This document shows positions 5,957 to 10,000 of a stretch of DNA of 64,000 nucleotides, one piece after another. Source of the stretch: Escherichia coli. Its GTDB lineage: Bacteria > Pseudomonadota > Gammaproteobacteria > Enterobacterales > Enterobacteriaceae. Each line of letters starts with the position of its first letter. Position 1 is the stretch's first letter. Under the pieces are notes generated by a model. That model worked only from the letters and a program-made list of their open reading frames with translations. It was not told the origin of the DNA and searched no databases. The stretch lies in the NCBI RefSeq assembly GCF_041886205.1, contig NZ_CP169029.1, one strand, 5' to 3'. The translations under genes and the position numbers were made by a program.

Positions 5957-8900
5957 TTAGTCAAACGGCGGTGGGGCCAGCACTTCACGATTACCGTTGT
6001 GCCCCTGTTCGCTGACAATCCCCTGCGCTTCCATCTGTTCGATAATACGCGCTGCACGGTTATAACCAATGCGGAACTGACGCTGTACGCCTGAAATTGA
6101 CGCTTTGCGTTTTTCAGTGACAAACTGCACCGCCTGATCGAACAACGGATCCAGTTCTTCAGCGCCATCGAAACCGCCCGCGCCACCTTCGCTTTCGCTG
6201 TCGGAGGTGATGCCATCAATATACTGTGGGCGACCACGCGCTTTCCAGTCCTGCACTACGGCATGAACTTCCTGATCGCGAACAAAAGCACCATGGACAC
6301 GTACCGGTAACGTGGAGTTCGGCCCAGAGTAGAGCATATCCCCCATACCCAGCAGTGATTCCGCACCAGCCTGATCAAGAATGGTACGTGAGTCAATCTT
6401 ACTGGATACGGTAAAGGCGATACGGGTCGGAATATTCGCTTTAATCAGACCAGTAATAACATCAACCGATGGACGCTGAGTTGCCAGTACGAGGTGGATA
6501 CCCGCGGCACGGGCTTTTTGCGCCAGACGTGCTATCAGCTCTTCCACTTTTTTACCTACCGTCATCATCAGGTCGGCAAATTCGTCCACCAACACCACAA
6601 TGTATGGTTCTTTTTTCAGCACCGGATGCTGGGCGTCCATACTGTCACCCGGCTTCCAGTACGGGTCTGGAATCGGACGCATCATGCGATCGGCTTCAGC
6701 AATTTTTTCGTTATAACCCGCCAGATTACGCACACCCAGCGCAGACATCAGTTTATACCGACGCTCCATCTCGTTAACACACCAGCGCAGCGCGTTGGCG
6801 GCATCTTTCATATCAGTAACGACTTCCGTTAACAGGTGCGGAATGCCTTCATACACCGAAAGCTCCAGCATTTTCGGGTCGATCATGATGAAACGCACAT
6901 CTTCTGGCTGTGCTTTATAAAGCATGCTCAGGATCATCGCGTTCACACCGACAGATTTACCGGAACCGGTAGTCCCCGCAACCAACAAGTGCGGCATTTT
7001 CGCCAGATCGGCAACCACCGGCTCACCGGCGATATCTTTACCCAGCACCACGGTTAATGGCGACGGATTATCGCGGAATTTGGCGTTATCCAAAACTTCG
7101 CGCAGATAAACGGTTTGTCGTTTTTTATTTGGTAACTCCAGACCTACATAGGGTTTGCCAGGAATAACTTCAACGACACGCACCGCCACCGTCGAAAGTG
7201 AACGGGCAAGGTCCCGTGACAAGTTAGAAATGCGCGCCGCTTTTACGCCAGGAGCCAGGTTAAGTTCAAAGCGAGTGATAACCGGCCCCGGAGAGTAATT
7301 GACGACATCGGCTTTAATACGGAAATCAGCCAGACGCGCTTCCACCAGACGAGCCATTTGTTCAAGCGCAAAGGTATCTACCGGCTCCACTTCGCTCGGC
7401 GGCGGTGTCAGCAAATCCAGAGAAGGCAGCGGCGTCGTCGGTTTATGCAACGGACGGCTGTCGCCATTACGCATCAACAGCGGATGAAGCAGGGTATCCT
7501 GCTGCTGCGGTGCAACCGGTTGTTGCGGCTGCTGATACTGCTGCTGCGGCGCAACTGGTTGTTGCGGCTGCTGATATTGCGGCTGTGGCGCAACCGGTTG
7601 TTGCGGCTGCTGATATTGTGGCTGCGGCGCAACCTGCTGTTGTGGCTGCTGATACTGCGGCTGCTGATATTGCTGCTGTGGCGCAACCGGCTGTTGTGGC
7701 TGCTGATACTGCTGCTGCGGTGCAACCGGTTGTTGCGGCTGCTGTACAGGTTCAACAATTGGCGTAAACAACGGTTCGTGTGGACCATCATCCAGCAACG
7801 CTTTCATTGGCGAAAATTCAAAATCATCCAGCGAGAACGGATTCGCCCCAGCCGGTTGTTCGCCGGAATAACGTTGTTGTTGAGTTTGCGCAAACTGACG
7901 AGCCAGTTCAGCCTCTGCCGCAGCATCTGCATCTTCTGCGTTTACGGGCACATCATGTTGATACTGTTCGCCATAGCGTTGCTGCTGTGTCTGGGCGAAC
8001 TGACGTGCCAGTTCATCCTGCTGCATCGCATCGATTTCATCATCGTTGTACTGATCGCCAGAATCGTACTGATTGCGCTGGGCTTCACGGGCTTTTTCTT
8101 CCGCCGCACGCTGTGAGGGCAGCTTAATACCGTAAGACGCCAGTTCACGACGAGTTGGCACGCGGATACGTTTCGGTCGTGGCAACTGCGGGCCAATCCC
8201 CTCTTTGACCTGCGGACGCGGTCCACCGCTATTTGCCAGACTGAAGACTGGCGCGGCAACGGTTGCGGCAGCCCCCGTCGCCAGTGTCGCTTTTTTCACG
8301 CCAGATGCCAGCGGAGAAACAGCGGCAGCGGTTTCTACTGGAGGTACTGCTGCAACAGAAGGTGCTTTCAGCGAAGATTTGATCGGTTCTGGTTCTTTAA
8401 CCGGTTCTGGAATCGGTTGATACCAGGCCGCAAGTTGTTCACGTTCACGGGCACGCTTCTCTTCCACTTCTTCAAAGTAGTAAAGCGGAGGACGCGCGGG
8501 TTTTGTCTCTTCTACAACGGGTTCAGGTTCCACAACAGGCTGCTGTTCAACAGGTTGCGGCTGTTGGTACAACGGTTCCTGAGCGGCTGGCTGCTGATAA
8601 GTTTGCTCAGTCTGGTATGTAGACTGTGGAGCAAAAGTGGATTGCTGCTCTTCGGCTTGCCAGGCGTTACCTGCCACCGGTTGTTCTGGCGCGGGGGCGT
8701 AATACGGTTGCTGAACAGGTTGTTCCGCCGCAGGAGCGTAGTAAGGTTGTTGCACAGGTTGTTCAGCTGCAGGCGCATAATACGGCTGCTGTGGCTGTAC
8801 AGGTTGTTGCAGCGGCTCATTATATTGCACTGCAGGCTGCGCATATTGTGGCTGCTGTGGGTAACCTTCCGGTGCAGGAGCAATAACCGGCTCTCCCGTT

Positions 8901-10000
8901 TGTGGACCCGGTACAGGCTGCCAGGCTACTGTAGGTTGCGAAGGTGGAACATCAACAGAGGCAACAGGCGGCGTATGAGTCACAGGTTCAACCGGCGCAG
9001 CCCAGCCTTGTGTCGCCGTGGTAGCAGCAGCTGCTACAGCGACAGGTTCGGTAATTGGCGCACCGTTTAATAATGGATCGTATTCGTCATATTCTGGCTG
9101 CGTTGCACGATTGCCCGAAAATAGGACGTCGTCCGGGTCGGCAGCCACACCGCGTGCAGTGTAGGTAATCTCTTCGTCATCATCCATCCGCTTACCGGAG
9201 AACAACGCAGCGTCTGTTTGCCGCCCCATCGGATTAATGAATTTTTCCGCCAACCGTTTACGACGCGCTAGCGCGCCGCGAAGAATACGGGCACGGCGTG
9301 ATTCATGCTGTTTGCCGTGGTTTTCATCTTCATACTCTTCGTCATCTTCATATTCATCTTCATCGACCCAGGTATCATCGCGACGGGTACGATTACTGGC
9401 GAAGGTGAGAATGTTTAAAATCCAGCCGCCGAGTTTTTCAGCAATGGTCACCCATGACCAACCGGTGAACAGCGTCAGGCCCGCAGCCCAAACGCAGAGC
9501 AGCGCAATAGTTCCCCCGCTACTGTGTAGCAGTGGTTGTAGCGTAGTACTTAGTAAGCTGCCAATGACGCCACCGGAGGCAAAATACCAGATATCGTCAG
9601 CGTTGATTGCCGCCAGACCACAGGAGGTAAGGATGAGCGCCAAAACGCCAATGATGCGTAGCGAAACGGCAAAATAATCAATGTATTCGTCGCTGGACTG
9701 ATGACGCCAGGCAAACCAACAACCGCCGACAATAATGACGGGAATGGTGTAAGCCATCACGCCAAAAATAAAGAACAGCGTATCTGCCAACCACGCACCG
9801 GGCATCCCACCTAAATTATGGATAGGTTCATGCCAGGCCGTTTGCGACCAGCTGGGGTCCGAAGGGTTAAAGCTTAGTAAGGCAGCCATCAACCAGACGG
9901 CAAACAGGACAATAAGGATCAGCAACGCCTCCAGAAGGCGGCGGCCGCTACTTAACTTTGTCAATGTGACTTCTTTGTCTTCAGTGTATTCCTGGCTCAA
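5957..10000 (-). CDS. ftsK: DNA translocase FtsK (membrane domain, Pro/Gln-rich linker, RecA-like motor, gamma domain)
   Basis: 1347-aa ORF; N-terminus [27 protein letters not shown]; Walker A GTTGSGKS; long PQ-rich linker encoded by tandem 39-bp repeats. Confidence 0.95.

Follow-up and report, generated by a model that had tools for sequence, protein, structure and literature searches.

How far the length of FtsK can differ between strains of Escherichia coli, by what kind of change, and whether such differences matter to the cell, are the questions raised by the ftsK gene in a stretch of E. coli DNA of 64,000 nucleotides (hereafter the window). According to the list of open reading frames and its translation, the gene occupies positions 5957..10000 on the minus strand and encodes a DNA translocase FtsK of 1347 aa from a TTG start; MG1655 ftsK, which also has a TTG start, encodes 1329 aa. 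Both figures had been correctly given in a preliminary description of this DNA, which ascribed the difference to the number of 39-bp repeats in the linker of the protein. The gene is identified as the ftsK orthologue by its neighbourhood, with lrp upstream and lolA downstream in the usual lrp-ftsK-lolA-rarA order, together with the 4TM, alpha, motor and gamma domains of its product, for which all four Pfam matches lie above the cut-offs (FtsK_4TM at residues 20-191, FtsK_alpha at 858-958, FtsK_SpoIIIE at 966-1179 and FtsK_gamma at 1282-1342). Its sequence matches the ftsK annotated in E. coli VE-T9 at 100% identity.

The FtsK linker is described as an unstructured, Pro/Gln-rich tether of ~650 residues, with a species-dependent length, which is required for the full activity of FtsK and touches other divisome proteins (PMC5357621; PMC3870252), and deletions within it lead to filamentation (reviewed in PMC5357621, citing Bigot 2004 and Dubarry 2010). 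The functional studies in this literature concern K-12 only, where the tether leads from FtsK-N to the alpha-beta-gamma motor. The repeat under study, here called array B (7499..7744, minus strand), is part of this tether: it lies between FtsK_4TM and FtsK_alpha, makes up the final 82 residues of the linker (residues 753-834, of which 54% are Gln and 24% Pro) and stops 24 residues short of the alpha domain. It is thus the C-terminal Pro/Gln-rich block of the linker that joins the membrane and divisome anchor FtsK-N to the DNA-pumping motor FtsK-C, and its placement in the Pro/Gln linker by the preliminary description was right.

Array B consists of six 39-bp units and one truncated unit of 15 bp, 246 bp in all, in frame with ftsK. 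The full units encode 13 residues each, ending in (Q/P)QY, with the final unit lacking the last Tyr codon, and the truncated unit (7652..7666, minus strand) reads CAG CAG CCG CAG TAT, that is, the five residues QQPQY. Because of this short piece the period-39 array is split in two by TRF, into a row at 7499-7664 (4.3 copies, 89% matches, score 255) and another at 7656-7744 (2.3 copies, score 143), which are bridged by a period-93 row spanning 7563-7744 (score 294). The identity of the array to itself at a lag of 39 bp is 0.826, compared with 0.514 +/- 0.032 and a maximum of 0.618 in 2000 codon shuffles preserving composition and frame, and since it exceeds every shuffle by a wide margin, chance is no explanation for the periodicity. 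The unit map and TRF agree with the earlier count of about six head-to-tail copies. The array reported at 7498-7752 is real, with an overshoot of 8 bp on one side, and the consensus proposed for it is the true unit in rotated form, with the variable position misplaced, the variant being QQ(P/Q)VAP and not QQP(V/Q)AP.

When FtsK of the window is aligned with that of K-12, exactly two gaps appear, of 13 and 5 residues, which account for the 18 aa. The 5-residue gap is the truncated unit of array B, which has six full units in both proteins, and the 13-residue gap falls in a second 39-bp repeat of the linker, array A (8679..8791, minus strand; TRF period 39, 2.9 copies), with three units of the peptide QP(V/A)QQPYYAPA(A/P)E in the window and two in K-12. 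The ascription of the 18-aa excess to the repeats at array B therefore holds for the 5 aa of the truncated unit and fails for the remaining 13 aa, and the length gap between the two proteins has its origin in two separate arrays rather than in one. A common origin was considered for the two arrays, both of which have 13-residue periods starting QPV, but their peptides otherwise show little likeness.

The variability of array B among strains was assessed with a 491-bp segment bracketing it (7380-7870), which was compared by megablast with 5,426 complete genomes, 60 records being sampled at even steps down the ranking. Fifty-two of these aligned in full, with a segment span of 515 bp in 28 records (seven units), 476 bp in 21 (six units, the K-12 type), 491 bp in two, as in the window, and 413 bp in one, a shorter allele. 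The alignments of the other eight broke, and the four of them that were fetched had 3, 8 or 9 units or an irregular array. In a set of 21 alleles, comprising 20 annotated ftsK genes and that of K-12, array B has 3-9 units, in some alleles with one or two QQPQY pieces, and array A has 1-4. The length of FtsK in this set ranges from 1290 to 1394 aa, the non-repeat remainder being constant at 1214-1215 aa, so that all length variation among the 21 alleles is confined to the two arrays. The suggestion that the repeat number of the linker is polymorphic is thus borne out by the very comparison that had been put forward as its check, an alignment of E. coli ftsK alleles with a count of their units, in which both linker lengths and repeat counts differ. 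The TTG start (window 9998-10000) is common to all 21 alleles, including K-12, and agrees with the RefSeq annotation. Across the complete genomes, 26 places matching ftsK queries lie on records labelled plasmid, perhaps because chromosomal contigs were given that label, and a single genome among the 5,426 has no ftsK match at all, possibly through a mislabelled or incomplete assembly.

The polymorphism of the ftsK linker repeats is already known, under other names, as a strain-typing marker since 2007-2008. The locus CVN001 reportedly belongs to the generic E. coli MLVA scheme of Lindstedt et al. 2007, and ms07 and ms06 are said to come from the Shigella / E. coli MLVA panel of Gorge et al. 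2008. The primer sequences were taken from Table 1 of PMC8143711 for CVN001 and from Table 1 of PMC8215070 for ms07 and ms06. Exact matches in the window were found for the reverse (7398..7417, plus strand) and forward (7839..7857, minus strand) primers of CVN001, with an in-silico amplicon of 460 bp, and for the reverse (7403-7422, plus strand, overlapping the CVN001 reverse site) and forward (7985..8004, minus strand) primers of ms07, with an amplicon of 602 bp; each of these primers has a single site in the window, where none is expected by chance. With primers that flank it, a unit of 39 bp and a varying copy number, array B is the published VNTR marker CVN001 / ms07. The ms06 primers, with one mismatch, flank array A (8882-8901 and 8562-8581; amplicon 340 bp), which is the MLVA locus ms06. 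The published descriptions of ms06 and ms07 show no difference from the two arrays: both are listed with 39-bp units, with alleles 2-4 for ms06 and 1-12 for ms07 (PMC8215070). The literature search returned no paper containing both CVN001 and ftsK, and neither PMC8215070 nor the CVN001 papers name the gene, so that the assignment of the three markers to ftsK was made here by in-silico PCR.

The generic E. coli scheme containing CVN001 has been used in PMC8143711 and PMC5217547, with a size formula that divides by 39 (PMC8143711) and published alleles 4-8, of which '5' makes up 40%, '6' 40%, '7' 13% and '8' 5% (PMC5217547 Table 3). These alleles correspond to 5-9 units as counted here; the K-12 amplicon of 445 bp, for example, scores '5' by the published formula and has six units. 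Once this offset is allowed for, the genome sample (six units in 21/52, seven in 28/52) agrees with the published frequencies. CVN001 and array B are the same locus with the same unit and differ in nothing biological, except that the 460 bp of the window give (460-250)/39 = 5.4, a non-integer that would be rounded to '5'. Non-integer alleles of this kind, attributable to slippage by 24 or 15 bp, are rounded off by fragment-size MLVA, and the window allele would be scored '5' like K-12 though probably descended from a '6' allele, a case of size homoplasy. The variability of the linker is already discussed in reviews and the locus is a routine typing marker, so it matters little as a discovery.

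The origin of the odd length can be approached through related alleles. Compared codon by codon, the full counterpart of the truncated unit is CAG CAG CCG [CAA CAG CCG GTT GCG CCG CAG CCG] CAG TAT, the bracketed 24 bp being those missing in the window; it is found as unit 3 in O145:NM and DETEC-E601 and as unit 5 in O121:H19, where the neighbouring units are identical. The missing 24 bp are flanked by two copies of an 8-bp direct repeat, CAGCCGCA, and the truncated unit is best explained by a 24-bp deletion between CAGCCGCA repeats inside unit 3 of a seven-unit allele. A 15-bp duplication was also considered as its source, and the deletion was preferred because the codons fit the third unit of the related alleles and neither of the neighbours. 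O150:H6 shows the opposite change, with a unit that is longer by 24 bp.

Whole units also come and go, often several at a time. In O121:H19, the 78 bp of units 1-2 recur without change as units 3-4, the PI12 allele equals the K-12 allele minus units 2-4, and 504239 and CX12 have two units (78 bp) fewer than the window allele, with which they share the first four units exactly. Over the 3,648 bp of non-repeat ftsK, DETEC-E601 and TW10722 are 1 SNP apart and have 7 and 9 units, F467 and PI12 are likewise 1 SNP apart and have 6 and 3, and in general alleles with 0-5 substitutions in this part can differ by one to three units. Such differences between nearly identical genes imply that a change of unit number is at least as frequent as a point substitution over the rest of the gene. 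The non-repeat part of the window ftsK differs from those of 504239 and CX12, which have the same truncated unit, by 24-25 substitutions; this is more than simple descent would lead one to expect, and the array may have been carried from one background to another by recombination within the gene, which may complicate descent among the three alleles.

The explanation that we regard as very probably correct brings these observations together. Array B is a minisatellite-type VNTR, with 39-bp units differing mainly at synonymous positions, in which whole units, often two or three together, would be gained or lost by replication slippage or by unequal exchange between sister copies, and in which parts of units would occasionally be lost or gained, 24 or 15 bp at a time, by slippage at the 8-bp CAGCCGCA, which recurs at alternating 24- and 15-bp intervals. 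As 39, 24 and 15 are each divisible by 3, no such event disturbs the reading frame, and each alters only the length of the tether, by 5-39 residues of ~650, a change that appears to be tolerated. The window allele, at the locus known as CVN001 / ms07, would then be a seven-unit allele the third unit of which was hit by a 24-bp deletion. The pattern of gains and losses is the one expected where short direct repeats slip during replication or are exchanged unequally between sisters, and we infer such a mechanism from sequence, in which slippage and RecA-dependent exchange would look the same.

A comparable repeat has been described in Salmonella, where the 39-bp VNTR of ftsK is known as STTR7/SENTR2 (PMC2430564). 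Going by the published descriptions, it resembles array B in its polymorphic, in-frame 39-bp unit and in lying at the same place in the linker region of ftsK (indel at nt 2269-2352, residues 757-784), and differs in belonging to another genus and in its higher copy number (9.3 in S. Enteritidis NCTC 13349). The exchange of S. Enteritidis ftsK alleles differing by 2 of 9 repeats left survival in egg white unchanged (PMC6137255). Judged by this one negative phenotype test and by the coexistence of many alleles, the variation in unit number is probably near-neutral. The peptide itself is another matter: the DNA units come in 26 distinct forms yet specify just 7 peptides, with 1.2 synonymous and 0.2 non-synonymous variants per site, the latter mostly P<->Q, and this synonymous excess indicates that the peptide of array B is constrained and is not a wholly arbitrary spacer. 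The strength of the excess hints that the 13-residue peptide may be maintained for its own sake, beyond its length.

The same purifying selection on the unit peptides could be taken as a sign that repeat number is adaptive, with the length of the tether tuning the reach or speed of the motor to the DNA at the closing septum and with optima specific to each lineage. The requirement of the linker for full FtsK activity and the filamentation caused by its deletions (PMC5357621) would agree with such a role, as would the dominance of six- and seven-unit alleles in the genome sample, were it not that clonal population structure explains the latter equally well. The whole span from 3 to 9 units shifts a linker of ~650 aa by <12%, very different counts occur on nearly identical backgrounds, and the allele swap in Salmonella was without phenotype in the one assay tried. 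Adaptive tuning of the tether, with the constraint on the peptide as its one positive support, is considered highly improbable. It is likewise very unlikely that the natural range of tethers (3-9 units of array B and 1-4 of array A, for an FtsK of 1290-1394 aa), against the six and two units of the K-12 protein used in functional work, has a measurable influence on when or how efficiently chromosome dimers are resolved or the septum closes; if it did, the ftsK VNTR alleles would be functional variants and not neutral markers.

Repeats that lie inside a coding region and change faster than its flanks, as these do, also call to mind contingency loci, in which changes in repeat number turn a gene on and off (phase variation), the gene here being that of FtsK or one overlapping it. 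Three overlapping reading frames cover array B, two of them antisense (7358..8116, plus strand, 252 aa; 7405..7767, plus strand, 120 aa) and one out of frame on the coding strand (7474..7791, minus strand, 105 aa). They are nonetheless spurious: no stop codon interrupts five of the six frames over array B because its codons are almost only CAG/CAA/CCG/CCA/GTT/GCG/TAT, and in the 20 RefSeq records inspected no overlapping gene is annotated there, ftsK being the only one. Real antisense genes at array B are ruled out on these two grounds, and the long antisense frames, which the preliminary description had already called spurious, are by-products of composition; gene-callers should expect such false ORFs in five of six frames over CAG/CCG-rich repeats. 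As for ftsK itself, each of the observed steps (39, 24 and 15 bp) is divisible by three, and 21/21 alleles are intact and in frame, which is not the behaviour of a frame-shifting or expression-switching repeat. The N-terminal part of ftsK is, moreover, essential. Uniformity of the array within clones, seen in the K-12 derivatives sampled here and in ST131, which is monomorphic at CVN001 (PMC5217547), would also speak against switching, and we see hardly any prospect that array B is a phase-variable locus.

Equally untenable is the idea that the odd length of six units plus 15 bp, or the differences between genomes, arose by collapse or expansion of repeats during assembly: tandem repeats are a classic source of error in short-read assembly and the window allele is rare, but its 491-bp segment is found unchanged in 30 complete genomes of independent projects, with three more of the same length at 98-99.8% identity, the hosts including human, pig, cattle, capybara, genet, bear and chicken. 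At 246 bp the array is short, and it is in frame in every allele; the K-12 derivatives in the sample are all at 476 bp and the sampled O157:H7 genome(s) at 515 bp, and PCR sizing has independently found the same polymorphism (PMC8215070; PMC5217547), so that an artefact is effectively refuted and would be exceedingly improbable. The window allele is real and heritable, and it is present in about 0.6% of genomes.

The window FtsK contains two further repeats. An acidic repeat at 9323-9364 (minus strand), detected by TRF with periods of 6, 9 and 18, codes for the stretch just past the membrane domain and showed no length variation among the 21 alleles. A segment of 14 residues is present twice, at window positions 7868-7909 and 7973-8014 (minus strand; residues 663-676 and 698-711), the copies lying 35 residues apart, and may stem from an old duplication of 105 bp within the linker; its copy number seems invariant, the linker outside the two arrays being of constant length in the 21 alleles.
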